Source: a virus
Taxonomy: Duplodnaviria > Heunggongvirae > Uroviricota > Caudoviricetes
Virus record (IMG/VR): IMGVR_UViG_2693429523_000013
Reading direction: 5' to 3' (one strand)
DNA: 22,934 nt
Below, piece by piece: positions 1 to 17,425 of this stretch; position 1 is the first letter of the stretch, and each line of letters begins with the position of its first letter. The translations under genes were made by a program, and so were the position numbers. The notes under the pieces were generated by a model. It saw only the letters and a list, made by a program, of their open reading frames with translations. It did not search any database and had not been told where the DNA came from.

Positions 1-348
1 CCGGAGCGCGGTAATCACCGGCACGACACCAGGTATCCCGGTTGACCAGCAGCATCAGGTGATAGTGTTTTTTACCTTTGCACTCCCCAAACTCCCGGGC
101 CCAGACGTAATGCAGGGTTGTGGGATGCACGCGTTTACCTTCCCGATGCTTACGTTTCTGGTAAGCGTCGATTCGGGCTTTCAGGGCATTGATGAAGCGG
201 GATATCACAGCTGCGTCCGTTGCTGCCGGTACATCCGGGAAACGCAGGTCAACCCGCAATGCCGTCAGGCGGGGATGAACATTCAGTGCGTGCCGCACCG
301 TCTCACGAATACGTTGCTGCCAGAAGGGGTTGTATTTGTAGGTCATGG
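1..348 (-). CDS. YagK/YfjJ-family (inovirus Gp2-like) protein, partial; C-terminal part lies beyond the window start
   Basis: Minus-strand frame is open from ATG (complement of 346-348) to the window edge; translation MTYKYNPFWQQRIRETVRHALNVHPRLTALRVDLRFPD... resembles CP4-prophage YfjJ/YagK proteins as recalled. Absent from the ORF track because it runs off the window. Confidence 0.5.
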
Positions 349-1945
349 TTATATCTCCGTATGGTTCATACGGAATAGCCACATCGTAAAAAATGCGCAG
401 CCCCCCTGCTCAGGCTCTCTGTGATAACCCGAACGGTCGTCTCCGGACTGACGATTGAATTCCCGGCGTTGTTTTTTTTAATGTAAAAAACCGGTTACGG
501 ATAAGGCGTGGCGAGGGAGCTATCGTGATACGCAAAAAGAAATGCGGGGATTGCGGTAATTCGATTACTCATAATACAGTGTGTTGCCTGTATTGTGGCG
601 CTGTCGTTCCTTCCGGTTATTACCGGAAGACCGATCGTCTGCTCTGTTTACTGAGTTACTGCTGGTGCTGATTCTGGTTACCGTTTCAGGCGTCAGTGTA
701 TTTGTACTGTTGCAGTAGGTTACTGGGGAGGGATTATCAGGAATCGGCGGAGCAGAGCGACCCGCTGCGTTTGTTGTGCCAGACAGTAACGCACCGGATC
801 CCTGCAAAATGGTACCTGAATCAATCACAGTTAGGTATTCCGCCAATCCGTGATCGAATCGAGCGGAATACGCAGCCCTGACAAATACGAGCCCCCTTCA
901 GCAGATACAGGCCGGTAATACCTGAAAATCAGCCTATTACCGCCCACGCCTCCGGCACCATTCCCTTTTGATTTCGAATTCTTTGTTGTCGCTATACCGC
1001 TTAATGTTCCCGGTCCTCCGGTGCAGATAACACCGGAGTCATCGTAGCGCTGCTTCAATATTCAGGTGACATATTTCCAGACGGAAGCCGGCGCGCGATC
1101 GTAAAGTTTGTTCATTGTCAGTTCTGCCAGCCGGTTGTCAACGGCAGAGTTAAAGGCTTCCAGCTCCGCAAGGGTAAGTTTATAACGCGTGTGGGAATTC
1201 ACTTTTCCCGCGTCTCCTGACGTATTACGGGCTGCCACTTACCAGGTGTCCCGCAATACAGCCTTAGTGTTCCGTTATCGGGGATCCGGACGCACCGCAA
1301 CAACCGGGGAAGTATTTCTGGTTTAGAGCAGTGTCAAGAGGGATTTCTCAGCCCCTCACTCACCGGCTCAGTCTCAGGGCAGGAGCATTAATACGCTCAG
1401 TTCATGTCTTATACAGGAATGGGCACAGGGGGAGCTGGCGTGTCACTGCTGATTTTACGCATCAGCGTTCATGTATCTGCACTCTGATACATGAACGATT
1501 CACAGCGCTCTGTTACCGGAGAGATTTACTCTCTTAGCTTACTCTGGCAAATCCTTTACGTTACTCTCTGATGACTTCTTATATTTATAATACCAATCAG
1601 ACAGCCTTATCCCATCGGTGATATCAGTCTCCTCCTCGCCAGGAACGGGCTGACTCACTGTAACCACCTCCGAAAACAACTCTGCAATTATCAGAACGCC
1701 TGCTTCTCTCCCTGTCCTCACGAAAACTATCCCCTCTTTATCGCGCGTGCGTGCGGAAGCATCTTTTCGCAACAACCACCCGGTATACCGGTACGGCTCA
1801 GCCACCGCAACCTCCCCGTTTATCTCCTGGCGGTCACATTCCCGATTATTTTTTACGTTTCTCCCCGGTTGTTATGCCGGTGAAGGTGGCGCGCTGTTTT
1901 CATGACCACACCGGCTGGTTTAACAACATCCGGAGGAACATTCTC

Positions 1946-2152
1946 ATGGCTACCCCAGTTTCACTGATGGATGACCAGATGGTCGACATGGCATTTATCA
2001 CTCAACTGAACGGCCTGACAGATAAGTGGTTTTACAGGCTCATCAGGGATGGGGCCTTTCCGGCTCCCATCAAGCTGGGCCGCAGCTCCCGCTGGCTGAA
2101 AAGTGAAGTGGAAGCCTGGCTACAGGCGCGTATTGCACAGCCCCGCCCGTAA
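1946..2152 (+). CDS. alpA: AlpA-family phage/island transcriptional regulator (68 aa)
   Basis: MATPVSLMDDQ...LTDKWFYRLIRDGAFPAPIKLGRSSRWLKSEVEAWL is a typical AlpA HTH signature; GGAGG at 1932-1936 is 9 nt upstream of ATG 1946. The longer track ORF from 1751 has no comparable start context. Confidence 0.8.
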   Translation: MATPVSLMDDQMVDMAFITQLNGLTDKWFYRLIRDGAFPAPIKLGRSSRWLKSEVEAWLQARIAQPRP

Positions 2153-2246
2153 TTTCTGACCGTTATCCGTTCACCCGCAGCAGACGTAATCCCCGGCCTG
2201 CCGGCGGCATTCTGCTGCCTGTTATATCCCCGTGAGGAATATGAAA

Positions 2247-2849
2247 ATGAAACAACAGTATCAGACCCGCTACGAATGGCTCCACGAAAGCTACCAGAAA
2301 TGGCTGACCGGCTTCACCCGGCACGCCGTATCCTGGGGCGTGTGTCATCCGAATATCTACTACTTCCATAATCTGACGCCCGGTTGGGTGTCATTCAATG
2401 GTGAAAAACCGGAGATTGCCATCGTACCCCAGAGCCTGCACCGGCTGATTTATGGCCCTGACAAACGGGCCACGCCGCCCCTGGATGATGATCTGATTGT
2501 GAATTTATGCACCAGTGAACATCTGCTGGTTCATCATCCGATGCTGGAAGGCATTCTCCTGTCTGAATGTGAACGTCTGAGGCAGCGTTCTCTGGCAAAT
2601 AAACTGATCAGCCTCTTCCGTCAGTTTGGTGGCACGGAGTTGCGCCTCAAACTGGTCTGGCTTTGCTGGCTTGATTTAATGACCGGAAACAGCCTTGAAG
2701 ACTGGAAAGAGAACCTGAAACGGAAATCAGAAAAAGAGCTGGAGGAATGGATCATCAACCGTCAGAGGCAGAGCGCAGCACTGACGGATCTGATGGATCA
2801 GTACGTGCTCCTGGCATACCGCACAACGGTTGACGATAGCCGCAACTGA
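2247..2849 (+). CDS. hypothetical protein (200 aa), island-encoded
   Basis: Long ORF directly downstream of alpA; GAGGA at 2234-2238 is 8 nt before ATG 2247. No family recognised. Confidence 0.5.
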   Translation: MKQQYQTRYEWLHESYQKWLTGFTRHAVSWGVCHPNIYYFHNLTPGWVSFNGEKPEIAIVPQSLHRLIYGPDKRATPPLDDDLIVNLCTSEHLLVHHPMLEGILLSECERLRQRSLANKLISLFRQFGGTELRLKLVWLCWLDLMTGNSLEDWKENLKRKSEKELEEWIINRQRQSAALTDLMDQYVLLAYRTTVDDSRN

Positions 2850-4190
2850 TGCCGGTTGCTTCCGGAAGGTGTGACAAAATACGGAAATGATGATGCTCCC
2901 GGCCCCGCATGCTCACCTGCAGAGCGTGTTCGTCGTCATCATACTGAGCCATGACGGGCGTCTTAAGGGCATCCTGTCATTGCTGAGCAGGCAACACCAC
3001 CAGAGGAGCCACGGACAGGGATGTTCTTTACAGCCCGATACACGCCAGGTTCTCAGCAGACTGAATGTGCAGGTGCGGTTATTCACCAGAAATGGCATGC
3101 TGCGGTACATACCCATCCTGGTGACAATATGTACGTGGCGACAGCGATCCCGGCACTGTGGAAGAGACTCACTCAGCCTGCAGGATATTCTTTCCGGCAT
3201 CCGGGAATGTCCGCCTGAATGCAAACAGGATGATATTTGAATCCGTAATACTGTTCTTTCATCATAAATAATTTATGCAGATACAGTTAACCGTTACAGT
3301 AGCCGGTTTGTTTTACCGGGAAATAATATCCGTCAGACTGATGCCGGAACATATCTGAAACACGTTATGATGTTTTGTTATCAGAAATGTTGTATATTCT
3401 TATCCGTGGCGACAGTTTAATGCCCTCTGGTATCACCTTGGATTTGCCCCTATATTTACGGGACACGCCTCTTTTCATTGTGCTCCTTTTCAGACTTCAT
3501 TTTCCGTAAGTATTCCCCGGCATAAAGGAGGTACCTTTCTGGCGTTTATAACTCTCTTTATCGGTGACGCCGGTAATACAGGGAATACCACACCGACAAA
3601 CGAGGTATTAACAGACGATATTTCAGTGTCCATAATTTTTCTGTCCGGTTAAATAACGTCAGTCTGCTGCCCTCTGACTGTAATCATCAAAGCCGGAATG
3701 CATACCGGGTTACAACGTAAAAAAAGTGATGCTGGCCCCCGGTGCAGCTGGCGGGCGAAACATGTTTACCTTTCAATACCCCCTGTCTGCAGTCTCCACT
3801 CTTCCATCCTCTTAAGCTACGTCGGCCACATGAGTGCACTTCCATGATAACAGGTATTCCTGTCAGCATAACGAAGCAGGTTACCTTCCCTTCCTCCTGC
3901 ATTTCCTGTCAGAATGACTGTACAGCGCGCAGATTGCCTTTTTATTGACCACCTTAATATACCATTATAAACTTCTTTTTATCATGTTATTATCACCTTA
4001 TTATGTTTAATTTTTAAGCAACCGGAGAAAGAGGATGGTTCAGAAAATTTTGTCGGATAAGGTTATGAATGAAAGAACAAATGCGTATTACTCTTATTAT
4101 CTTGGAGAGCGTAATATCTCCGTACTACCCCTTAATGGTAACCGGCTCATTTAAACCGTCTGGTCTGTTTCCTCCGGCTCTACAAAAATA

Positions 4191-4868
4191 ATGTCCATCA
4201 TTTTTAATGGACACTATCGTATGAAACACCGGACCTGGATCACTGAAGCTTTACGTCTTCACTTTGAAGAACATTTACCCCGGGTTGTGGCCGGGCGTCG
4301 CCTGAGTGTACCAAAATCAACAGTTTGTAGTATGTTCGTGCGCTTTCGGAGAGCTGGCCTTTCGTGGCCTTTGCCCGCAGGCATGTCGGAGCAGGAACTT
4401 GATGCCTGCCTTTACGGACAATTTTCCACGGTACCAGTCGTACGTCCTGAAAGCACCGTTATATCCGAAGCCCCCGTGGTAAAAAAACGTCCCCGGCGGC
4501 CCAACTTCCCTTATGAGTTTAAAATCGCCTTAGTGGAGCAGTCACTACAGCCCGGAGCCTGTGTGGCGCAGATCGCCCGGGAAAACGGAATCAACGATAA
4601 CCTGCTCTTCAACTGGCGCCATCAATACCGGAAAGGTGGCCTGCTGCCTTCCGGAAAAAATATGCCGGCACTGCTTCCCGTGACGTTAACGCCGGAGCCG
4701 GATAATAAAATCCCGGCCCCCGCACAGGAACCAGAGCAGATAAATACACCGTCCGACAGTCTGTGTTGTGAGCTGGTTCTGCCGGCCGGAACTCTCAGGC
4801 TTAAAGGTAAACTGACGCCGGCGTTATTACAGACACTTATCCGCGAAATAAAAGGGAGCAGCCACTGA
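4191..4868 (+). CDS. tnpA: IS66-family accessory protein TnpA (orfA) with atypical N-terminal extension; start uncertain
   Basis: C-terminal part PRRPNFPYEFKIALVEQSLQPGACVAQIARENGINDNLLFNWRHQYRKGGL matches the IS66 TnpA HTH pattern. The first ~95 residues (..RRAGLSWPLPAGMSEQELDACLYGQ..) look like a separate transposase-type HTH. Confidence 0.65.
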   Translation: MSIIFNGHYRMKHRTWITEALRLHFEEHLPRVVAGRRLSVPKSTVCSMFVRFRRAGLSWPLPAGMSEQELDACLYGQFSTVPVVRPESTVISEAPVVKKRPRRPNFPYEFKIALVEQSLQPGACVAQIARENGINDNLLFNWRHQYRKGGLLPSGKNMPALLPVTLTPEPDNKIPAPAQEPEQINTPSDSLCCELVLPAGTLRLKGKLTPALLQTLIREIKGSSH

Positions 4869-5215
4869 TGATATCTCTCCCTGCAGGTTCGCGTATCTGG
4901 CTGGTTGCAGGTATCACCGATATGCGAAATGGCTTTAACGGCCTGGCATCAAAAGTTCAGAACGTCCTGAAGGATGACCCGTTCTCCGGACACCTGTTCA
5001 TCTTCCGCGGACGCCGGGGTGACCAGATAAAAGTGTTGTGGGCTGACAGTGACGGACTGTGCCTCTTCACCAAACGCCTGGAGCGGGGCCGCTTCGTCTG
5101 GCCAGTCACCCGTGACGGCAAGGTGCACCTTACTCCGGCTCAGTTATCCATGCTTCTTGAAGGTATCAACTGGAAGCACCCGAAACGAACGGAACGCGCT
5201 GGAATCCGCATATAA
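4868..5215 (+). CDS. tnpB: IS66-family TnpB (orf2), 115 aa
   Basis: MISLPAGSRIWLVAGITDMRNGFNGLASKVQ...GDQIKVLWADSDGLCLFTKRLERGRFVWP is the characteristic IS66 Orf2 sequence; start overlaps the tnpA stop. Confidence 0.9.
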   Translation: MISLPAGSRIWLVAGITDMRNGFNGLASKVQNVLKDDPFSGHLFIFRGRRGDQIKVLWADSDGLCLFTKRLERGRFVWPVTRDGKVHLTPAQLSMLLEGINWKHPKRTERAGIRI

Positions 5216-5234
5216 CCCGTTGTAAAGTGAGGAT

Positions 5235-6806
5235 ATGGACACCTCACTTGCTCATGAGAACGCCCGCCTGCGGGCACTGTTGCAGACGCAACAGGACACC
5301 ATCCGCCAGATGGCTGAATACAACCGCCTGCTCTCACAGCGGGTGGCGGCTTATGCTTCCGAAATCAACCGGCTGAAGGCGCTGGTTGCGAAACTGCAAC
5401 GTATGCAGTTCGGTAAAAGCTCAGAAAAACTTCGTGCAAAAACCGAACGGCAGATACAGGAAGCACAGGAGCGAATCAGCGCACTTCAGGAAGAAATGGC
5501 GGAAACGCTGGGTGAGCAATATGACCCGGTACTGCCATCCGCCCTGCGCCAGTCTTCAGCCCGTAAACCGTTACCGGCCTCACTTCCCCGTGAAACCCGG
5601 GTTATCCGGCCGGAAGAGGAATGCTGTCCTGCCTGTGGTGGTGAACTCAGTTCTCTGGGATGTGATGTGTCAGAGCAACTGGAGCTTATCAGCAGCGCCT
5701 TTAAGGTTATCGAAACACAACGTCCGAAACAGGCCTGTTGCCGGTGCGACCATATCGTGCAGGCACCAGTACCTTCAAAACCCATTGCACGCAGTTATGC
5801 CGGAGCGGGGCTTCTGGCCCATGTTGTCACCGGGAAATATGCAGACCATCTGCCGTTATACCGCCAGTCAGAAATATACCGTCGTCAGGGAGTGGAGCTG
5901 AGCCGTGCCACACTGGGGCGCTGGACAGGTGCTGTTGCTGAACTGCTGGAGCCGCTGTATGACGTCCTGCGCCAGTATGTGCTGATGCCCGGTAAAGTCC
6001 ATGCTGATGATATCCCCGTCCCGGTCCAGGAGCCGGGCAGCGGTAAAACCCGGACAGCCCGGCTGTGGGTCTACGTCCGTGATGACCGTAACGCCGGTTC
6101 ACAGATGCCCCCGGCGGTCTGGTTCGCGTACAGTCCGGACCGGAAAGGTATCCATCCACAAAATCACCTGGCCGGTTACAGCGGTGTGCTTCAGGCCGAT
6201 GCTTACGGTGGTTACCGGGCGTTATACGAATCCGGCAGAATAACGGAAGCCGCGTGTATGGCTCATGCCCGGAGAAAAATCCACGATGTGCATGCAAGAG
6301 CGCCCACCTACATCACCACGGAAGCCCTGCAGCGTATCGGTGAACTGTATGCCATCGAGGCAGAGGTCCGGGGCTGTTCAGCAGAACAGCGTCTGGCGGC
6401 AAGAAAAGCCAGAGCCGCGCCACTGATGCAGTCACTGTATGACTGGATACAGCAACAGATGAAAACACTGTCGCGTCACTCAGATACGGCAAAAGCGTTC
6501 GCATACCTGCTGAAACAGTGGGATGCACTGAACGTGTACTGCAGTAATGGCTGGGTGGAAATCGACAACAACATCGCAGAGAACGCCTTACGGGGAGTGG
6601 CCGTAGGCCGGAAAAACTGGATGTTCGCGGGTTCCGACAGCGGTGGTGAACATGCGGCGGTGTTGTACTCGCTGATCGGCACATGCCGTCTGAACAATGT
6701 GGAGCCAGAAAAGTGGCTGCGTTACGTCATTGAACATATCCAGGACTGGCCGGCAAACCGGGTACGCGATCTGTTGCCCTGGAAAGTTGATCTGAGCTCT
6801 CAGTAA
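5235..6806 (+). CDS. tnpC: IS66-family transposase TnpC (523 aa)
   Basis: N-terminal coiled-coil/leucine-zipper region, CxxC...CxxC zinc-finger motifs (CPACGG...CCRCDH) and a C-terminal DDE region typical of IS66 transposases; GAGG lies just upstream of ATG 5235. Confidence 0.9.
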
Positions 6807-6855
6807 ATATCAATACGGTTCTGACGAGTCGCTTACAAACAAAAGGCTGGTTAAC

Positions 6856-7077
6856 ATGAAAAAAATGGCAATTGTCGATAAAAAGGGTCTGGAGTACATT
6901 CCTAATATCGATCGTATGATCCGTGAGAAAGAATGTCGGGAGCTAACCACTCTTGCGAACAGCACACGCTGGAAGCTGGAGAAGGAAGGAAAATTTCCTA
7001 AGCGGATCAAGATTGGTTCCACTGCTGTTGCATATCGTCTTTCAGAAGTGCAGGCATGGATTAGGGGAGAGTGGTAA
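6856..7077 (+). CDS. AlpA-family HTH regulator (73 aa)
   Basis: ...ELTTLANSTRWKLEKEGKFPKRIKIGSTAVAYRLSEVQAWIRGE fits the AlpA/excisionase-like HTH pattern; begins 20 bp after the IS66 right end. Confidence 0.7.
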   Translation: MKKMAIVDKKGLEYIPNIDRMIREKECRELTTLANSTRWKLEKEGKFPKRIKIGSTAVAYRLSEVQAWIRGEW

Positions 7078-7128
7078 GAATTTAGACAGTGGATGTAATC
7101 CTATGGGGTAAACCCATAGGATTTGAAA

Positions 7129-8478
7129 TCACTTAAATTCAAATACGTGCGTAGTTGATGAGATTATATAATTAGGTGGTAAGTATTGAACTATTTCTCC
7201 ATCTTCTTCAAAAATATGAATAACTCTTGGGAATAATTCAGGGTGTATAGGATTTAATGCCTTCGGATTATGAAACATGTATATTGCTGTACACCATGGT
7301 TCTTGATATGAAGGTGCATTGACAAGAGCAGTAAAAGGCATTGGGGTACAGCCTTCATCAGTTTTAATACCTCTAACGATGGATTTGACATTTTTTTGTT
7401 CAATCCCTGCCACTACTCCCATCCTATCAAATTTTGGGATGGTGGCATGTGTCGCAAGTAATATGGCTGAGACATTCTCATTTTTATTAGAGCCGAAAAA
7501 ATTAGATTGTATACTTCGATTTTCAAATAAATGTTGTTCAATTTTACTTCCAGAATCCATATCTACACCATACAGATAGCTTTGTAGTGCTGGCATTGAT
7601 ATACTCATCGAAAATCTGCGTGAGTAATCGTGTAAAGCAATAATGAAAGGCTTTCCTTTTGTATGATCTAGTTCCCAATAGCATAATTTTAAGGGTTCAG
7701 GTTTATGCCTAACTTTCTTTAATAGAGTGCGGGCAAATTTGAATGGCATTTGTTCTTTTACATATCTCTGAAGATCTTCTACTGCCTCATGATCAAGTAT
7801 CAATTTCTCGGTAGGTTCCTCTTGTTCTGCAACTGTGGCAGCTTCTACAGCAATATCAATGCCATTTTTTGAGATAATATAATCAGGTTGAGCATAATCT
7901 CTGCATATTACGAAATCCATTTCGTAGAAAACTGCGTTTAGATAAAGTTCGAATAAGCGAGAGTTAAATGAAGCACTCTGGAAATCTCTGATGAATATTC
8001 CATCAGGATCTTTACACCAATAAGCTAACTCTTGCATAACAATAAATGCAGGATAGTGTTTGGGTTCCTCAAGTAGCATTCTTAGATAAACGTTTTTTTT
8101 ATGTTCTGGAACTTTGGCTAGGAATATTGAAAATGCCGACTCTGATTCGTCACCCTGTATAAAACAACCGTTCTTGTGTAGTGATAATAGCTCTGGTATG
8201 GCTTTTTCCATATCAGTAATTAAATCATCTTTAGATTCACGGGATACAATTACTTTAATCGCTCTAAATTTTTTATCTAAATCCCTACCTAGAAATATAG
8301 CGTTGTAATCATTATCTATTTTACAAAAAACAATTGTTGCTAAGATCGTGACATCATCCTTTATAAATTTGAACCAACAGATTTCCTCCGAAAAGGTTTT
8401 TACGTATGGTGTACGACCATAGAAAAATACATCAAATTGTTCTTTACTGATTTCTAGCATTTTGTGACTTGTTGTCAT
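7129..8478 (-). CDS. hypothetical protein, 449 aa, AT-rich cargo gene of unknown function
   Basis: Uninterrupted 1350-nt minus-strand ORF; AAGGA is 7 nt upstream of the ATG (complement of 8476-8478). Visibly AT-rich compared with flanking DNA (by eye, not computed). No confident family assignment. Confidence 0.7.
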   Translation of the reverse strand: MTTSHKMLEISKEQFDVFFYGRTPYVKTFSEEICWFKFIKDDVTILATIVFCKIDNDYNAIFLGRDLDKKFRAIKVIVSRESKDDLITDMEKAIPELLSLHKNGCFIQGDESESAFSIFLAKVPEHKKNVYLRMLLEEPKHYPAFIVMQELAYWCKDPDGIFIRDFQSASFNSRLFELYLNAVFYEMDFVICRDYAQPDYIISKNGIDIAVEAATVAEQEEPTEKLILDHEAVEDLQRYVKEQMPFKFARTLLKKVRHKPEPLKLCYWELDHTKGKPFIIALHDYSRRFSMSISMPALQSYLYGVDMDSGSKIEQHLFENRSIQSNFFGSNKNENVSAILLATHATIPKFDRMGVVAGIEQKNVKSIVRGIKTDEGCTPMPFTALVNAPSYQEPWCTAIYMFHNPKALNPIHPELFPRVIHIFEEDGEIVQYLPPNYIISSTTHVFEFK

Positions 8479-8501
8479 AGAAGAATCCTTTATGCAAATT
8501 A

Positions 8502-8696
8502 TCAGCCTTTAGGTGTTATTCCTTGTTTTATTAGTTCGGCACGAGCCAGTTCTTTTAGCCAGTTACCTAAGCTCATCCCTTCTTTGGCAGCGACATTAAC
8601 CATTTGTTCTTTTAATTCTGGGTTAATACGGACTTGGAATGCTGGTGCTTTACCTGCACCTTTCGGTTGTTTATCACGTTGAATGATAGTTGACAT
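8502..8696 (-). CDS. ribbon-helix-helix (Arc/CopG-like) DNA-binding protein, 64 aa; likely regulator of the downstream 449-aa gene
   Basis: ..FQVRINPELKEQMVNVAAKEGMSLGNWLKELARAEL.. matches the beta-strand/helix/helix pattern of Arc-type repressors. Its stop is 23 nt upstream of the 449-aa gene start on the same strand. Confidence 0.6.
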   Translation of the reverse strand: MSTIIQRDKQPKGAGKAPAFQVRINPELKEQMVNVAAKEGMSLGNWLKELARAELIKQGITPKG

Positions 8697-8738
8697 GTGT
8701 GTACCTATTGCTTAGTATGATTCTTGATAGGTACACAC
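8697..8738. promoter_or_regulatory. 12-bp perfect inverted repeat (GTGTGTACCTAT-N18-ATAGGTACACAC) directly upstream of the RHH gene; candidate operator or translational hairpin
   Basis: Arms at 8697-8708 and 8727-8738 are exact reverse complements. On the minus strand, the arm adjacent to the start codon contains the only SD-like sequence (AGGT) for the RHH gene. Confidence 0.4.
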
Positions 8739-8835
8739 CTTATCATGTTTTATTGCTATATAACAACGCCCTGCAGTGCTCGCAACACATACAGGGCGTC
8801 TAACCACCAACGATAGCAACAGTATCGAGGTAGCT

Positions 8836-9039
8836 ATGAGAAATCATACCACACACCCGCAAGGGCGGGATTCGCACAACCTGAATAAATACATCTGGCG
8901 TTTTATCGCCCTGAGCACCGCACAACCACGCGTAATACACATCGAGGCCGCCAGCGAACAGGAAGCCCGCCAGCAATCCCCAACTGGCTACGTGATGATA
9001 TTCGCCGCCCGTATTCGTCAGGAGGTGTGCCGTGCTTAA
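8836..9039 (+). CDS. hypothetical small protein (67 aa), first gene of the divergent plus-strand operon
   Basis: GAGG at 8827-8830 precedes ATG 8836. The track ORF from 8776 is longer but lacks an RBS. No family recognised. Confidence 0.35.
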   Translation: MRNHTTHPQGRDSHNLNKYIWRFIALSTAQPRVIHIEAASEQEARQQSPTGYVMIFAARIRQEVCRA

Positions 9040-9647: not shown

Positions 9648-9947
9648 ATGGAAATGAAAAATTCTGGCTTTATTGCCAGCGGCCCCGCTCGGCCTGAATT
9701 TATGAACGGCGATATTTACCGCGATAAATACGGCGGCACGGTAACGATTAAAGGCGTGGCAGAACGGCGCATCACTTACCGCCGTGAGGGGTATAGCTAT
9801 GACTGCGTGATGCCTGTTTATCAGTTCCGGCGTGATTTTTCCCTGGTATATGCCGCACCCCGCAGTAAGCCCATCAGCAGGGAAAAAGCGCGGGGAAACA
9901 TCCAGAAAATGAAAAGCATGATTAACGCATTCAGGGGCAAAAAATGA
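9648..9947 (+). CDS. hypothetical protein (99 aa)
   Basis: GAGGAA precedes the ATG; the stop overlaps the primase start (ATGA). Confidence 0.5.
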   Translation: MEMKNSGFIASGPARPEFMNGDIYRDKYGGTVTIKGVAERRITYRREGYSYDCVMPVYQFRRDFSLVYAAPRSKPISREKARGNIQKMKSMINAFRGKK

Positions 9948-11695
9948 AACTGGCACCGAACTTAAAAAAACAGCCACGCGACAGACTGACAGAGGTAATC
10001 ATCTTTGCAGGTAGTGATGCGTGGAGCCATGCGAAAGAGTGGCGGGAATGGGCGGGTAAACATATTGCCGCCGACGATGTGCCGCCTGTCGTGCTGGCTG
10101 ATGAGCAACTGAAAAATATCACCGATTACCGGATCATTGATGAAGATCGTCAGTGTGTGCGTGTTTACCGCGCAGGACATATCACAGAGCACAGCATGAC
10201 GCAGATTGTTACGTTACTGGCTGTGGCTGGAGTGAAGACCGTACACGAATACGCGGGGATTACTGACACCAGCCCAGTGGATTTATCCGAGCAGTTGCCG
10301 CGACTCAAAGAGGAATGCGAGCGTGGGGAAAGTCTGGTGCTTAATCTTCCGACGAAGCAAAAGGCGCAACTTTCACAGATGGCAGACAGTGAACGTGCAC
10401 AACTACTTGCCGATCGCTTTGATGGTGTGTGTGTTCATGCAGAAAGTGAAATCGTCCACGTATGGCGCGGCGGGGTATGGTGTCCGGTCAGCACAATGGA
10501 GCTGAGCCGCGAAATGGTGGCGATCTATTCAGAGCACAGGGCCACGTTCAGCAAACGTGTAATCAATAACGCCGTGGAAGCGTTAAAAGTTATTGCCGAC
10601 CCCATGGGGGAGCCGTCCGGTGATTTGCTACCGTTCACTAATGGTGTGCTTAACCTGAAAACGGGGGAATTTTCTCCGCACTCGCCGGAGCACTGGAGCA
10701 CCACGCACAATGGCATTGAGTACACGCCACCAGTAGCAGGGGAAAACATCCGCGATAATGCGCCAAATTTCCATAAATGGCTTGAACATGCTGCAAGAAA
10801 AGACCCGCGTAAGATGATGCGTATATGTGCCGCGTTATACATGATTATGGCGAACCGCTACGACTGGCAGATGTTCATTGAGGCCACCGGAGACGGGGGA
10901 AGCGGTAAGAGTACATTTACCCATATTGCCACCCTGCTTGCTGGCAAACAGAACACCGTAAGCGCGGAGATGACATCACTCGATGATGCAGGAGGGCGCG
11001 CGCAGGTTGTCGGGAGTCGTCTTATCGTCCTTGCCGATCAGCCGAAATATACGGGGGAAGGCACGGGCATCAAGAAAATCACGGGAGGCGATCCCGTTGA
11101 AATTAACCCGAAATATGAGAAGCGATTCACGACGATAATAAGGGCGGTGGTACTGGCAACCAATAACGACCCGATGATCTTTACCGAACGGGCCGGAGGT
11201 GTGTCACGCCGTCGGGTGATTTTCCGGTTCGACAACATTGTAAGGGAGGACGAAAAAGACAAGGAATTACCGGAAAAGATAGCGGCAGAAATCCCCGTAA
11301 TTATCCGCCGCTTGCTGGCTAATTTTGCTGCCCCTGAAAAGGCACGGGCTTTATTACTGGAACAGCGTGACGGTGATGAAGCTCTGGCAATAAAGCAGCA
11401 AACGGATCCGGTTGTTGAGCTTTGCGCGGCGCTGGAGTTTCTGGAGGAAGCTCGTGGGCTAATGATGGGCGGTGGTGGTGACACCGTGAAGTACACGACC
11501 AGAAACAGCCTTTACCGTGTCTATATGGCCTTCATGGCATACACAGGAAAGGGGAAATGTTTGAGCGTGAATGAGTTCGGAAAGGCTATGAGGTCAGCGG
11601 CGAAAGTTTACGGATATGAATATATTACGCGAAAAGTTAAGGGAGTCACGCAGACCAACGCAACGACTACTGATGATTGCGATGCGTTTTTATAA
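9944..11695 (+). CDS. phage/plasmid primase-helicase, P4-alpha C-terminal type (D5_N-like plus SF3 NTPase), 583 aa
   Basis: Walker A GDGGSGKST and Walker B-like RLIVLADQP; overall architecture is that of P4-family / PICI replication proteins as recalled. An iteron array lies directly downstream. Confidence 0.85.
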   Translation: MKLAPNLKKQPRDRLTEVIIFAGSDAWSHAKEWREWAGKHIAADDVPPVVLADEQLKNITDYRIIDEDRQCVRVYRAGHITEHSMTQIVTLLAVAGVKTVHEYAGITDTSPVDLSEQLPRLKEECERGESLVLNLPTKQKAQLSQMADSERAQLLADRFDGVCVHAESEIVHVWRGGVWCPVSTMELSREMVAIYSEHRATFSKRVINNAVEALKVIADPMGEPSGDLLPFTNGVLNLKTGEFSPHSPEHWSTTHNGIEYTPPVAGENIRDNAPNFHKWLEHAARKDPRKMMRICAALYMIMANRYDWQMFIEATGDGGSGKSTFTHIATLLAGKQNTVSAEMTSLDDAGGRAQVVGSRLIVLADQPKYTGEGTGIKKITGGDPVEINPKYEKRFTTIIRAVVLATNNDPMIFTERAGGVSRRRVIFRFDNIVREDEKDKELPEKIAAEIPVIIRRLLANFAAPEKARALLLEQRDGDEALAIKQQTDPVVELCAALEFLEEARGLMMGGGGDTVKYTTRNSLYRVYMAFMAYTGKGKCLSVNEFGKAMRSAAKVYGYEYITRKVKGVTQTNATTTDDCDAFL

Positions 11696-11711: not shown

Positions 11712-11934
11712 TCTACCTTGTCTACCTGACTGAAAGAAAATACTTTTATTTCAATGTATTAATGCAGGTAGATAACTATTTTTCACTGTCTACCTGTTAT
11801 CTACCTTATCTACCCATTTTTGTAGACAGGTAAGGAGACGGGTAGAGATGAGGTAGACAGCTATTTGGGGCTGTCTACCTCCCTGAAACCCGCGCCATTA
11901 CTGGCCTGATAACTAATCAGGTAGACAAGGTAGA
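11712..11934. repeat. iteron array; candidate replication origin of the satellite-like module
   Basis: About 12 copies of the hexamer TCTACC / GGTAGA in both orientations (TCTACC at 11712, 11721, 11789, 11800, 11809, 11874; GGTAGA at 11767, 11841, 11852, 11920, 11929, plus a partial copy at 11822). An AT-rich spacer sits at 11731-11766, immediately 3' of the primase gene. Confidence 0.6.
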
Positions 11935-12904: not shown

Positions 12905-13945
12905 ATGGTTGATTTATATTCGCCTACCCAGCTTGTACAGGTGGTTAATGCTGTAGATGTACAAAAACAACTAAATGCGTTGTTTACCAGTTTGTTTTTT
13001 ACTCGCTCGGTAATGTTTGGATCGCGCGATATTATTCTTGATACAATCGACGATCCAAATATCCCAATTGCAGCGTTTTGTTCTCCTATGGTGGGTAGTA
13101 AAGTTTCACGTGACGAAGGGTACGAATCAAAAACAATTCGTCCAGGCTATATGAAGCCGAAAAGCAGCATTGATCCAAATAAGTTAGCTGTGCGCCCTGC
13201 TGGTGTATCACCTGAGCAATACAATGCTTTTGGGGCGCGTAATATTAAAGTTAAACAGGCGATTGTAAATCAAGCTAAAGCTATTCGTGCACGTATTGAA
13301 TGGCTTGCCGTTCAGGCAATCACAACGGGGAAAAATATCATTGAGGGCGATGGTATTGAACGTTATGAGCTGGACTGGAATATTAAACCACAAAATATCA
13401 TCACTCAGTCTGGCGGTACTGAGTGGTCAGGTAAGGATAAAGAAACTTTTGATCCAAATGATGATATTGAGAGCTACGCAGAATTTAGTGAGGGCGTCAC
13501 TAATATCATCATTATGGGCGGTAATGTATGGAAGAAATACCGTTCATTCAGAGCGATAAAAGAGGCTCTGGATACCCGTCGTGGTTCTAATTCCGAACTG
13601 GAAACGGCCCTTAAAGACCTTGGTGATTCGGTGAGTTTTAAAGGATATATGGGCGATGTTGCGATTGTTGTTTACAGCGGGCGTTATACCGACGAGGACG
13701 GAACTGAAAAACATTTCCTTGATCCTGATTTGATGGTGCTTGGCAATACGGCTCTTCAGGGGATTGTCGCCTATGGCGGTATTCAGGATCCGGAGCTAAT
13801 CCGAATGGGGCTGACTAAAGCCGAACTTGCACCGAAAAACTATATTGTGCCTGGTGATCCGGCTATTGAATATGTGCAGACACATTCAGCACCACAGCCA
13901 ATACCGGCCCGCATCAATCGTTTTGTTACCGTTCGCATTGGCTAA
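12905..13945 (+). CDS. major capsid protein, lambda gpE family (346 aa), divergent from lambda
   Basis: Aligns by eye along its length with lambda gpE (PGYMKPK.., NIITQSGGTEWSGKDK.., DTRRGSNSELETA identical, C-terminal ..GDPA.E...QSAP..). AGAGGA is 5 nt before ATG 12905; the track ORF start at 12692 adds 71 residues with no homology. Confidence 0.8.
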   Translation: MVDLYSPTQLVQVVNAVDVQKQLNALFTSLFFTRSVMFGSRDIILDTIDDPNIPIAAFCSPMVGSKVSRDEGYESKTIRPGYMKPKSSIDPNKLAVRPAGVSPEQYNAFGARNIKVKQAIVNQAKAIRARIEWLAVQAITTGKNIIEGDGIERYELDWNIKPQNIITQSGGTEWSGKDKETFDPNDDIESYAEFSEGVTNIIIMGGNVWKKYRSFRAIKEALDTRRGSNSELETALKDLGDSVSFKGYMGDVAIVVYSGRYTDEDGTEKHFLDPDLMVLGNTALQGIVAYGGIQDPELIRMGLTKAELAPKNYIVPGDPAIEYVQTHSAPQPIPARINRFVTVRIG

Positions 13946-14744: not shown

Positions 14745-14912
14745 ACGGGGCGTCAGGCGCGCGGATTTTCGCTATTTATGAAAATTTTCCGGTTTAAGGC
14801 GTTTCCGTTCTTCTTCGTCGTAACTTAATGTTTTTATTTAAAATACCCCCTGAAAAGAAAGGAAACGACAGGTGCTGAAAGCGAGCTTTTTGGCCTCTGT
14901 CGTTTCCTTTCT
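14745..14912 (+). promoter_or_regulatory. lambda-type cos region: cosN-like site (~14745-14762) and cosB with three CGTTTCC-core R elements
   Basis: 14760-14936 reads almost exactly as the recalled lambda left-end/cosB sequence upstream of Nu1. R3 is at 14791-14797, inverted R2 at 14861-14867 and R1 at 14901-14907; R2/R1 lie in a 16-bp perfect inverted repeat (14856-14871 / 14897-14912). The 12-mer at 14748-14759 is GGGCGTCAGGCG rather than the recalled lambda GGGCGGCGACCT. Confidence 0.7.
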
Positions 14913-14936: not shown

Positions 14937-15488
14937 ATGGAAGTCAACAAAAAGCAGCTGGCTGACATTTTCGGTGCGAGTATCCGTACCATTCAGAACT
15001 GGCAGGAACAGGGAATGCCCGTTCTGCGAGGCGGTGGCAAGGGTAATGAGGTGCTTTATGACTCTGCCGCCGTTATAAGATGGTATGCCGAAAGGGATGC
15101 TGAAATTGAGAACGAAAAGCTGCGCCGGGAAGTTGAAGAACTGCGGCAGGCCAGCGAGACAGATCTCCAGCCAGGGACTATTGAGTACGAACGCCATCGA
15201 CTTACGCGTGCGCAGGCCGACGCACAGGAACTGAAGAATGCCAGCGAAACAGGTGAGGTAATTGACACTGCATTTGCGACTTATGCCTTGTCGAAATTAA
15301 CTGGGGAAGTTGGAGCAATCATTGATAGTCTTCCACTTGCGATCTGTCGACAGTTTCCTGGCATGGAAAAACGGTATCAGGACTTCATTAAGATGGAGGT
15401 CAGTAAAGCATTTATTCGAGCTTACCAGATCTCAGATAACATTCCAGATATGGCTGAAAGGTATATCAAGGATAATCAGCGAAGTTAA
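14937..15488 (+). CDS. Nu1: terminase small subunit Nu1, chimeric: lambda-type N-terminal DNA-binding domain with a divergent C-terminal domain
   Basis: First ~100 residues (MEVNKKQLADIFGASIRTIQNWQEQGMPVLRGGGKGNEVLYDSAAVI.WYAERDAEIENEKLRREVEELRQASE.DLQPGTIEYERHRLTRAQADAQELKNA) match lambda gpNu1 as recalled; the C-terminal ~80 residues are similar in length but clearly different. Confidence 0.9.
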   Translation: MEVNKKQLADIFGASIRTIQNWQEQGMPVLRGGGKGNEVLYDSAAVIRWYAERDAEIENEKLRREVEELRQASETDLQPGTIEYERHRLTRAQADAQELKNASETGEVIDTAFATYALSKLTGEVGAIIDSLPLAICRQFPGMEKRYQDFIKMEVSKAFIRAYQISDNIPDMAERYIKDNQRS

Positions 15489-15594: not shown

Positions 15595-16500
15595 TTAAGG
15601 TAGTGGTACTATGGATATTTTTCTGTCGTTCCCAAATGAACTTTTAAATAATTTCGCTCTTGGATACATTTTAACTAGTGATGCGACTTCATCGAACTCG
15701 CTGGCATCAAAAAGAGGACCAAGTATTACAGATTTTAACTCAAAAGGGTGAAATTTTAAGTCGCTATATTGACCAGTGCTATTTGGCCTAGCGTAGGTTG
15801 AAATTCTCCACTCTCTTTCATATGCCCATTCTTCTGTTTTTATGAATATTATCTCATTATTGATATATTCAATTGACTTATTGTCTGGCATGAAAAGCAA
15901 CTCGGCCATCCCTTCAGCAGTGTGAGTTAGAGGCATTTCATCTGTGTATTTCATAGGTTTGGCTATTAACCAAGCGCTATCCAGAAAGTCTACACAATCA
16001 AATTCGATAACTATACCTTTATATTTATCGGCATAGTGATTCCACATAGGAGTGATTATAGGGCTCTCAGATAAACACAAAATCCTTCTGTTATTAAGCA
16101 TTCCTCGCCAGACATCTTTCATTTCTTGTATTGCCGCAGGAGCGCCAATCCCAACTGGTGGAATGTTTACCATTTCTTGAAATCTTTCAATTAATCCTGC
16201 GGGTATGCCTAAAGGAAATGACTTTTGGAAATCACTTAGCATTGTTCTAATTCTAGGGTTTAAATTTTGTATGTCTTCTCTGGGGGTAATCAACTCCGCT
16301 ATTAACTTGCGGGCTAAAGCTTTGCCAATATTAATTTCGTTAATACCAGGCATAACTTCTCTTGGAACATCAAAAGGGTCATTAAATAGGACCGGAGAAC
16401 TCCATCTAAGGCTGCATGAATCAAGAACAATCTTCGCGGTATTCAACGACATATACTTATAAAATGTTGAGCGTTCATGCATTCTGTTGGGTGAGCGCAT
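15595..16500 (-). CDS. DUF2971-like protein (301 aa), AT-rich moron
   Basis: N-terminal ..STFYKYMSLNTAKIVLDSCSLRWSSPVLFNDPFDV.. matches the recalled DUF2971 signature (YKY.S...L...lw.S.p..FNDPFD). AGAGGA is 4 nt upstream of the ATG (complement of 16498-16500). AT-rich by eye. Confidence 0.7.
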   Translation of the reverse strand: MRSPNRMHERSTFYKYMSLNTAKIVLDSCSLRWSSPVLFNDPFDVPREVMPGINEINIGKALARKLIAELITPREDIQNLNPRIRTMLSDFQKSFPLGIPAGLIERFQEMVNIPPVGIGAPAAIQEMKDVWRGMLNNRRILCLSESPIITPMWNHYADKYKGIVIEFDCVDFLDSAWLIAKPMKYTDEMPLTHTAEGMAELLFMPDNKSIEYINNEIIFIKTEEWAYEREWRISTYARPNSTGQYSDLKFHPFELKSVILGPLFDASEFDEVASLVKMYPRAKLFKSSFGNDRKISIVPLP

Positions 16501-16648: not shown

Positions 16649-17425
16649 GTGAATCCGCAGATGACCCTGCGTCGCCTGCCGGATGAAGATCCGCAGAATC
16701 TGGCGGACCCGGCTTACCGCCGCCGTCGCATCATCATGCAGAACATGCGAGACGAAGAGCTGGCCATTGCTCAGGTCGAAGAGATGCAGGCAGTTTCTGC
16801 TGTGCTTAAGGGCAAATACACCATGACCGGTGAAGCCTTCGATCCGGTTGAGGTGGATATGGGCCGCAGTGCGGCGAACAACATCACACAGTCCGGTGGT
16901 ACGGAGTGGAGCAAGCGTGACAAGTCCACGTATGACCCGACCGACGATATCGAAGCCTATGCGCTGAACGCCAGCGGAGTGGTGAATATCATCGTGTTTG
17001 ATCCGAAAGGCTGGGCGCTGTTCCGTTCCTTCAAAGCCGTCAAGGAGAAGCTGGATACCCGTCGCGGCTCTAATTCCGAGCTGGAGACAGCGGTAAAAGA
17101 CCTGGGCGAAGCGGTGTCCTATAAGGGGATGTATGGCGATACGGCGATCGTCGTGTATTCCGGACAGTACGTGGAAAACGACGTCAAAAAGAACTTCCTT
17201 CCGGACAACACGATGGTGCTGGGGAACTCTCAGGCACGCGGTCTGCGCACCTATGGCTGCATTCAGGATGCGGACGCACAGCGCGAAGGTATTAACGCCT
17301 CTGCCCGCTACCCGAAAAACTGGGTGACCACCGGCGATCCGGCGCGTGAGTTCACCATGATTCAGTCAGCACCGCTGATGCTGCTGGCTGACCCTGATGC
17401 GTTCGTGTCCGTACAACTGGCGTAA
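16649..17425 (+). pseudogene. E: major capsid protein E, lambda-type, 5'-truncated (lacks ~80 N-terminal codons)
   Basis: Translation MNPQMTLRRLPDEDPQNLADPAYRRRRIIMQNMRDEE... to ..FVSVQLA is near-identical to lambda gpE residues ~84-341 as recalled. Lambda similarity begins near 16637; an in-frame TAG sits at 16634-16636 and upstream DNA is unrelated. Confidence 0.8.

Follow-up and report, generated by a model that had tools for sequence, protein, structure and literature searches.

The anti-phage protein PD-T7-1 is one of 21 systems recovered by functional selection from Escherichia coli isolates (Vassallo, Doering, Littlehale, Teodoro and Laub, Nat Microbiol; Vassallo et al., 2022, PMC9519451). 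Its entry consists of one coding sequence of about 449 aa from strain ECOR46, annotated as 'Nuclease'. Cloned with its native promoter into MG1655, it gave stronger protection against T-even phages than against T7 (PMC9519451). Protection against a Teseptimavirus was seen again in a later study of strain NILS69. Literature searches for the mechanism of PD-T7-1 or of PD-T7-5, a shorter homologue family from the same 2022 study, returned surveys and mentions only, with no biochemical report of nuclease activity, and no solved structure was found for the PD-T7-1 family. Here we analyze IMG/VR virus record IMGVR_UViG_2693429523_000013, a 22,934-nt stretch of DNA classified as Caudoviricetes (the window), in which an AT-rich block carries PD-T7-1 behind a gene for a 64-aa ribbon-helix-helix (RHH) protein, in the cargo slot of a phage satellite.

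The closest described satellite is the capE type of helper-embedded phage-inducible chromosomal island (PICI), with Eco567.11capE as its prototype (Tommasini, Mageeney and Williams, 2023, PMC10111431). Eco567.11capE has the same order of int, alpA, a dynamic zone, icd-like, DUF4222, primase and single-stranded DNA-binding protein (SSB) genes, and its own capsid E and decoration D genes. It is inserted in a lambdoid major capsid gene, as are the sister loci of the window. In the parts of that report consulted here, the zone after alpA is presented as one of Bro-network genes and immunity RNAs, and an arrangement of an RHH gene with defence cargo is not described. Unlike Eco567.11capE, the window element is without integrase and left junction, both lost to an IS66-associated rearrangement. 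Defence genes that are co-transcribed with a repressor or kept in hotspots of mobile elements are also known from lambda cI-rexAB, the P2/P4 hotspots (Rousset et al., 2022) and PICI accessory regions. As there, swappable AT-rich defence cargo occupies a fixed slot between conserved genes of the element and would be expressed while the element is at rest. The window slot is bounded by alpA on one side and by the RHH gene and a palindrome on the other, and its cargo would be co-transcribed with the RHH gene.

We read the locus as the cargo slot of a capE-type PICI holding PD-T7-1 behind an Arc-like regulator, with the palindrome as the likely operator. We place the probability of this overall reading at about 0.72. 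Most of the locus as a whole is already known, and the modest points that remain are the RHH protein as cassette regulator, a conserved hairpin and the enzymology of PD-T7-1. What is new here is a predicted model of PD-T7-1, the finding that the RHH protein is probably not its partner, the RHH gene and palindrome before three unrelated cargos, and the position of the palindrome arms on either side of a rightward -10 box. The features of the cassette are:

7129..8478, minus strand: PD-T7-1 anti-phage defence gene, 449 aa, AT-rich cargo (PADLOC match, GC 0.344)
7627..7968, minus strand: predicted restriction-endonuclease-like (PD-(D/E)xK-fold) core, codons 171-284 (predicted fold and invariant residues)
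8479..8501, minus strand: spacer of 23 nt from the RHH stop to the PD-T7-1 ATG, containing AAGGA as Shine-Dalgarno sequence (from the sequence)
8502..8696, minus strand: gene for the 64-aa Arc/Mnt-type RHH regulator (profile match to Arc/Mnt)

The PADLOC PD-T7-1 model PDLC04073 matches the 449-aa protein across its whole length (510 bits, E=1e-153; residues 7-447 on model positions 1-448 of 452). The model for PD-T7-5 (PDLC04110) matches residues 118-424 only, at E=6.6e-39. PHROG 8571, of unknown function, matches at 6.8e-90 and was the sole outcome in PHROGs. Scans against Pfam and NCBIfam returned no family, and the protein and its relatives all bear the database name 'hypothetical protein'. 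By its full-length profile match, the 449-aa protein is PD-T7-1, a single-protein anti-phage defence already known. It resembles the published protein in full-length family, species, length of 449 aa and mobile-element context, and shares with it a weak PD-(D/E)xK signal at residues 171-219. At E<=1e-3 the family counts 1041 cluster representatives; species-level genome hits number 377. PD-T7-1 DNA occurs in 2 of 5426 complete E. coli genomes. Only two complete RefSeq genomes have the gene, and in one of them, E. coli MLI104K2 (L001, 9294-10642), a 99.6%-identical copy is decaying: it is split into open reading frames (ORFs) of 316 aa and 131 aa, beside an intact RHH gene.

An earlier note, made by a model that saw only the letters and the reading frames, had proposed this block as an undescribed accessory or defence module. 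Its account of the layout is borne out: the minus-strand ORF pair of 449 aa and 64 aa with a 23-nt gap is there, the block is AT-rich against its neighbours (the large gene has a GC fraction of 0.344 and the RHH gene one of 0.41, compared with 0.50 in the window as a whole and 0.52-0.55 in the icd-like and primase genes), and it lies between an AlpA-family gene and a divergent early operon. The view of the block as accessory or defence cargo also stands, in that the large gene is anti-phage cargo which a satellite has acquired horizontally. 'Undescribed' is wrong, because the match to PD-T7-1 is full length and the system was validated by Vassallo et al. (2022). The large protein's lack of a recognisable family is true of Pfam and NCBIfam and untrue of defence-specific libraries such as PADLOC. 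The proposed cloning with the native promoter and phage challenge has in effect been published for PD-T7-1, with the ECOR46 allele. A protein invisible to Pfam and NCBIfam can thus be a catalogued defence protein, and defence libraries should be consulted before such a protein is called new.

We predicted the structure of PD-T7-1 with AlphaFold2 from an alignment of 48 sequences (identities 31-86%), which also served to define invariant residues. The model has a predicted local distance difference test score (pLDDT) of 93.3 and a predicted template modelling score (pTM) of 0.92. It consists of three parts: an N-terminal alpha/beta domain, a central endonuclease-like core and a C-terminal beta-rich domain for which there was no clear match. 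The central module, at residues ~130-300, runs as a helix (E177), a strand, a strand after P198-D199, a strand with E212-A213, a long helix with K255 and a strand with D284. In the predicted model this is the alpha-beta-beta-beta-alpha-beta core of restriction-endonuclease-like enzymes. E177, P198-D199, E212-A213, K255 and D284 are all invariant in the alignment. P198-D199 and E212 stand at the canonical catalytic positions, and position 214 is Ala or hydrophobic, never Lys, family-wide. The invariant K255 on the following helix could stand in for the missing (D/E)xK lysine, and migration of this lysine is a documented feature of the PD-(D/E)xK superfamily. The invariant residues were placed on the order of secondary-structure elements.

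The model points to PD-T7-1 as a putative metal-dependent nuclease, acting on DNA or RNA, whose flanking domains would gate its activity. Most likely, it would cut nucleic acid after the flanking domains sense infection, and the infection would be stopped. PD-T7-5 shares the core and C-terminal region (residues 118-424) and is without the N-terminal domain of ~117 residues found in the window protein; many family members of ~350 aa likewise consist of the core and C-terminal region only. The conserved acids, on a core without the canonical lysine, provide concrete acidic-residue mutants for work on the mechanism.

The RHH protein belongs with the phage P22 repressors Arc and Mnt. As a single sequence it aligns with P22 Arc end to end (E=0.063), and a profile of five RHH sequences searched against the PDB reaches Arc (1b28) at E=1.8e-4, residues 12-57 on 2-47, and Mnt at 0.08. 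The earlier assignment to the Arc/CopG type is upheld by this profile match. Pfam gives HicB at 20.3 bits and Arc at 14.1 bits, each below its cut-off. The RefSeq label 'HicB family antitoxin' is, judging from domain content, a reflection of the RHH portion of the Pfam HicB model only. An Arc-like unit and a short basic N-terminal arm account for all 64 residues, without space for a toxin-neutralising domain. Because the Arc alignment spans the whole protein, a toxin-binding domain appears to be absent. We considered the RHH protein as an antitoxin and rejected this on domain content and lack of co-occurrence. It is better described as an Arc/Mnt-like regulator than as an antitoxin or a partner of PD-T7-1.

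Co-occurrence was assessed in both directions. We searched the surroundings of PD-T7-1 homologues (31-60% identity) at 80 species-representative loci with an RHH profile. A relative lay within 4 kb at one only, the closest enterobacterial locus; the other 79 were without. The 31 upstream neighbours of PD-T7-1 homologues shared no Pfam family. Judged from these neighbourhoods, PD-T7-1 is a stand-alone protein of ~450 aa without an obligatory partner gene. The RHH gene in turn stands before unrelated cargos (L003, L004, L103, L104 and L002). In RM14723 and N1420 the same slot holds a 241-aa protein with no similarity to PD-T7-1; in EC-10 and nine other genomes it holds a 227-aa 'putative abortive infection protein'; and in strain 10 and many others SWIM and DUF2971 genes follow a strongly diverged RHH gene. 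Four RHH alleles in sister PICIs are thus followed by PD-T7-1, the 241-aa protein, the 227-aa Abi-like protein or SWIM/DUF2971 genes. Among complete E. coli genomes, megablast detects the RHH gene and palindrome in 16; the alpA and icd-like flanks are present in more than 2000. The view of the RHH protein as a specific partner of the large gene therefore fails, since the RHH gene, which is conserved and promoter-proximal, precedes unrelated cargos and is absent at 79 of 80 other-species loci.

Several observations concern the cargo itself. The 241-aa protein of RM14723 was tried as a relative of PD-T7-1 and rejected, as BLASTP gave no similarity. A 241-aa slot protein (L003, 5232-5957, minus strand) has no PADLOC match, and the 227-aa 'putative phage abortive infection protein' (L103, 3254-3937, minus strand) has weak AbiC/AbiP similarity (~3e-4). 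Both are candidate defence genes. The capE helper-embedded PICIs have a defined cargo slot, flanked by alpA and the RHH gene, with at least 4 different occupants, two of which (241 aa and 227 aa) are uncharacterised. In Pseudomonas fluorescens HK44 (L019, 3748-6410), the gene upstream of a 53%-identical PD-T7-1 homologue is a reverse transcriptase, not an RHH gene, and the two overlap by 4 nt. The upstream gene matches PADLOC RT at 3e-44 and RT_UG17 at 3.6e-35, which suggests that the PD-T7-1-like protein of this pair could be the effector of a defence-associated reverse transcriptase system.

The regulatory region upstream of the RHH gene contains a palindrome and two promoter candidates:

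8697..8738, no strand: perfect 12-bp inverted repeat with arms at 8697-8708 and 8727-8738 around an 18-nt spacer (candidate operator for the RHH protein)
8690..8718, plus strand: rightward sigma-70 promoter-like site TTGACA-17-TAGTAT (10/12 consensus match)
8739..8766, minus strand: weak candidate promoter for RHH/PD-T7-1, -35 TTGTTA at 8766-8761, 16-nt spacer, -10 GATAAG at 8744-8739 (by eye)

The arms of the palindrome read GTGTGTACCTAT (8697-8708) and ATAGGTACACAC (8727-8738), separated by N18, and the repeat directly adjoins the RHH ATG. Markov-1 simulations of the window yield 0.09 repeats of this kind (arms >=12 bp, loop <=40) per 22.9 kb, and it would be very unlikely for one to fall by chance into the 140-nt intergenic region. 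The low expectation, together with conservation in related loci, argues that the palindrome is not a chance feature. The arms are perfect in EC-10 (L103), with a loop that differs in sequence and length; RM14723 and Buttiauxella keep 11 of 12 positions, with one change each; and in L015 the arms are conserved and the loop varies. Strain 10 has a related, diverged repeat instead, and the beta-strand of its RHH protein changes from FQVRI to FRMRI. Because arms and beta-strand change together in this strain, they look like a cognate repressor-operator pair. A conserved half-site of the form AGGT-N4-ACCT was also considered and was dropped, as Buttiauxella is without the outer AGGT.

The rightward promoter-like site faces the icd-like/primase operon and was the only strong site in the region in a consensus scan. 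RHH codons 1-2 and the first base of codon 3, read on the opposite strand, form its -35 box, and the encoded Met-Ser-Thr is invariant in every RHH allele, including that of Serratia. The -10 box falls within the loop between the palindrome arms, and the two arms cover the spacer and start region; by eye, the -10-like box is TAGCAT in L103 and TAAGAT in L015. On the leftward side, TTGTTA-16-GATAAG falls under the scan threshold and corresponds to TTGTTT...GCTAAT in Buttiauxella and TTGTTT...GTTAAT in L103. We regard it as a weak, positionally conserved promoter candidate whose start would lie inside the left arm. The 23-nt spacer appears to leave little room for a separate PD-T7-1 promoter. The inverted repeat is thus present as the earlier note had it. 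It overlaps the RHH ribosome-binding region, as the note said, and brackets the rightward promoter-like site at least as well. A palindromic operator is plausible, and autoregulation is something we infer from it.

On this layout, the RHH gene would head the leftward transcript, and PD-T7-1 would probably be co-transcribed with it in the resting satellite, as rexAB is with cI in lambda. The RHH repressor would most likely bind the two 12-bp arms, which overlap the RHH transcript start and ribosome-binding region and would bracket the -10 box of the divergent rightward site. Bound there, it could limit its own transcript, and with it that of PD-T7-1, and possibly also the satellite early operon. 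The nearest model is the immI region of P22, with the RHH repressors Arc and Mnt and overlapping divergent promoters; like the window, it has a small Arc-family repressor beside a palindrome in a divergent promoter region. The window RHH protein is similar at profile level only, and its binding here is a prediction. The Arc operator is 21 bp. Unlike it, the window half-sites are 12-bp arms set 30 bp apart, centre to centre. Going further, the RHH protein might be a resident repressor of the PICI lineage that shuts the icd-like/primase promoter and drives or autoregulates a leftward transcript with a defence slot in second position; this is a tentative proposal, possible but on balance doubtful. 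If true, it would put satellite quiescence and defence expression on one switch, and 'single-gene' PD-T7-1 would be an RHH-controlled cassette.

The published clone bears on this point. ECOR46 PD-T7-1 is RCQ85672.1 on contig QOYF01000088, with the ORF at 2183-3533 and the clone at 2138-3835 (Supplementary Table 2, PMC9519451). The clone thus extends 45 nt past one end of the 1350-nt ORF and 302 nt past the other. Projected onto the window, the clone spans 7084-8780. It takes in PD-T7-1, a terminator hairpin on one side and, on the other, the RHH gene with palindrome and weak candidate promoter, and it ends 4 nt beyond 8776, the first base of a long GTG-start reading frame of the icd-like gene. 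Every readable E. coli copy of the locus is syntenic, and the window agrees with the ECOR46 entry in ORF length (1350 nt), species and clone geometry. Because the clone geometry maps in this way onto a syntenic window, the validated 'single-gene' construct probably carried the RHH gene and palindrome, if ECOR46 is syntenic as well. The database entry is one gene; the window, and probably the original clone, has the upstream 64-aa RHH gene and palindrome. A hidden Arc-like regulator and palindrome in the PD-T7-1 construct, which we consider very probable, bears on how expression level and toxicity are read.

Four alternatives were weighed against this reading. The module could be undescribed after all, as its 'hypothetical protein' names and the empty Pfam and NCBIfam scans would have it; given the end-to-end PADLOC match and the published validation, we consider this hardly credible. 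More serious is the proposal that PD-T7-1 is not a catalytic nuclease, its core being a degenerate nucleic-acid- or protein-binding fold that defends by sequestration or by triggering a host pathway. The missing canonical lysine invites this view, but E177, D199 and E212 are invariant down to ~31% identity, K255 and D284 could supply the missing basic and acidic groups in a superfamily where the lysine is known to migrate, and PD-T7-5 retains the same core. A non-catalytic PD-T7-1 is unlikely on this evidence. It is harder still to sustain that the RHH and 449-aa proteins form an obligate toxin-antitoxin-type unit, in which the RHH protein neutralises or gates the nuclease until a phage releases it. 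In its favour are the RefSeq antitoxin label, the 23-nt gap, the presence of PD-T7-1 after the exact RHH sequence in 10 of 10 places read, the survival of the pair through divergence in other genera and the probable presence of both genes in the active published clone. Yet the Arc-like fold and N-terminal arm use up the 64 residues, the HicB match is sub-threshold and covers the RHH part only, related RHH alleles precede three unrelated cargos, 79 of 80 species-level loci manage without an RHH relative within 4 kb, and in MLI104K2 an intact RHH gene stands beside a broken nuclease gene. We therefore consider an obligate two-component unit very unlikely.

The palindrome could also act as RNA, as a hairpin in the 5' leader of the RHH/PD-T7-1 transcript that occludes a weak AGG site and the AUG, or stabilises the mRNA, and is not an operator. 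The predicted hairpin is stable (-20.5 kcal/mol, z=-4.9, 0/200 shuffles as stable), its right arm stops at -1 of the AUG, and the RM14723 variant still pairs as G-U on the minus strand. Against this, the Buttiauxella variant is an A-C mismatch on the minus strand, the best -10 candidate (8744-8739) would start transcription in the left arm and leave the full hairpin untranscribed, and a conserved palindrome right next to an Arc-type repressor gene is classically an operator. A purely RNA role seems distinctly unlikely, although the two roles are not mutually exclusive. The stability of this hairpin counts against our main reading, as do several other observations. The rightward -10 box is unrecognisable in strain 10 and Serratia, and a promoter scan of the region found no consensus promoter for the leftward transcript. 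The allele identity to ECOR46 and the RHH gene in the published clone are deduced from lengths and coordinates. The RHH/PD-T7-1 pair is kept in Buttiauxella (75% identity) and in Serratia (63% identity in the large protein and 41% in the RHH protein), and its retention there could go beyond a shared origin of the element. Descent of the element from a common ancestor appears to be the better explanation, which leaves the two-component alternative at low probability.

The surroundings of the cassette include the following features:

6856..7077, plus strand: alpA, left border of the cargo slot, in the PICI integration zone (Pfam Phage_AlpA 2.7e-15)
7097..7123, no strand: perfect 11-bp hairpin between the convergent alpA and PD-T7-1 genes (inverted-repeat search)
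8765..8800, minus strand: hairpin with a T-rich tail, in minus-strand sense, past the RHH promoter region and before the icd-like gene (covariation)
8836..9039, plus strand: icd-like gene, first in the early/replication operon that runs rightward (as annotated by RefSeq in L001, a 99%-identical locus)
IS66 genes: tnpA 4191-4868, tnpB 4868-5215, tnpC 5235-6806

The hairpin at 7097-7123 is a likely bidirectional terminator. The hairpin at 8765-8800 has 14 predicted pairs, of which 5 show compensatory double changes over 6 loci, and its G-U pairs fit the minus strand only. It resembles an intrinsic terminator without a gene upstream, possibly one for an antisense RNA directed at the icd-like leader. 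If the RHH protein is the resident repressor of the lineage, this hairpin could add an antisense-RNA layer. A P4 CI or P1 c4-type immunity RNA beside the icd-like gene was considered and rejected: Rfam, at the gathering threshold and at E<=5, gave no C4 or isrK. The segment 8715-8734, which covers parts of the loop and right arm of the palindrome, shows 80% complementarity to 8830-8849, which spans the icd-like start at 8836, and the two could form a long-range leader pairing.

By gene content and order, the element is a helper-embedded PICI of the capE type, and the locus is its accessory slot, with alpA on one side and the early operon on the other. The order in sister loci is int, alpA, cargo, RHH, the divergent icd-like gene, small ORFs, DUF4222, primase, SSB, capsid E, decoration D and a second AlpA-like gene, and these elements are inserted in a lambdoid prophage, within its major capsid gene. 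The helper-embedded PICI architecture was seen in L001-L015 and L103-L108. In the window, the plus-strand operon diverging from 8836 contains the icd-like gene (no Pfam match), small ORFs, DUF4222 and a D5_N/DUF5906 primase (9944-11695). SSB, capsid E, decoration D and Nu1 are also present. The right junction is the C-terminal remainder of the prophage capsid gene (16649-17425), followed by FI, FII, Z and U.

The left side is disrupted. A search of the 22,934-nt window found no integrase, and sister loci with identical cargo have int and both junctions. IS66, at ~4138-6835, joins the last 19 nt of int (the IS66 cut lies before the int stop) to an unrelated CP4-44-like island, which occupies 1-4137 and is 99.9% identical to E. 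coli HS. Because the integrase is gone and IS66 joins the end of int to this island, the window copy of the PICI is, as far as its sequence tells, stranded. The same IS66 junction is also found in CP010238.1.

A second AT-rich cargo (GC 0.377) lies in the PICI late zone at 15595-16500 on the minus strand. It encodes a 301-aa DUF2971 protein that matches the PADLOC candidate system PDC-S31 at 2.5e-32. The adjoining gene at 14937-15488 (plus strand) is a captured terminase small-subunit gene (Phage_Nu1, 3.6e-84). At L011 the post-primase slot holds an AbiJ-like/Abi_C gene instead. Further perfect inverted repeats (arms >=12 bp, loops <=40) occur at 11850-11881, 14856-14912, 13457-13513 and 1466-1497; one of the four lies just past the primase gene, where PICI origins have been reported, and another is a 16-bp repeat ahead of the Nu1 gene.

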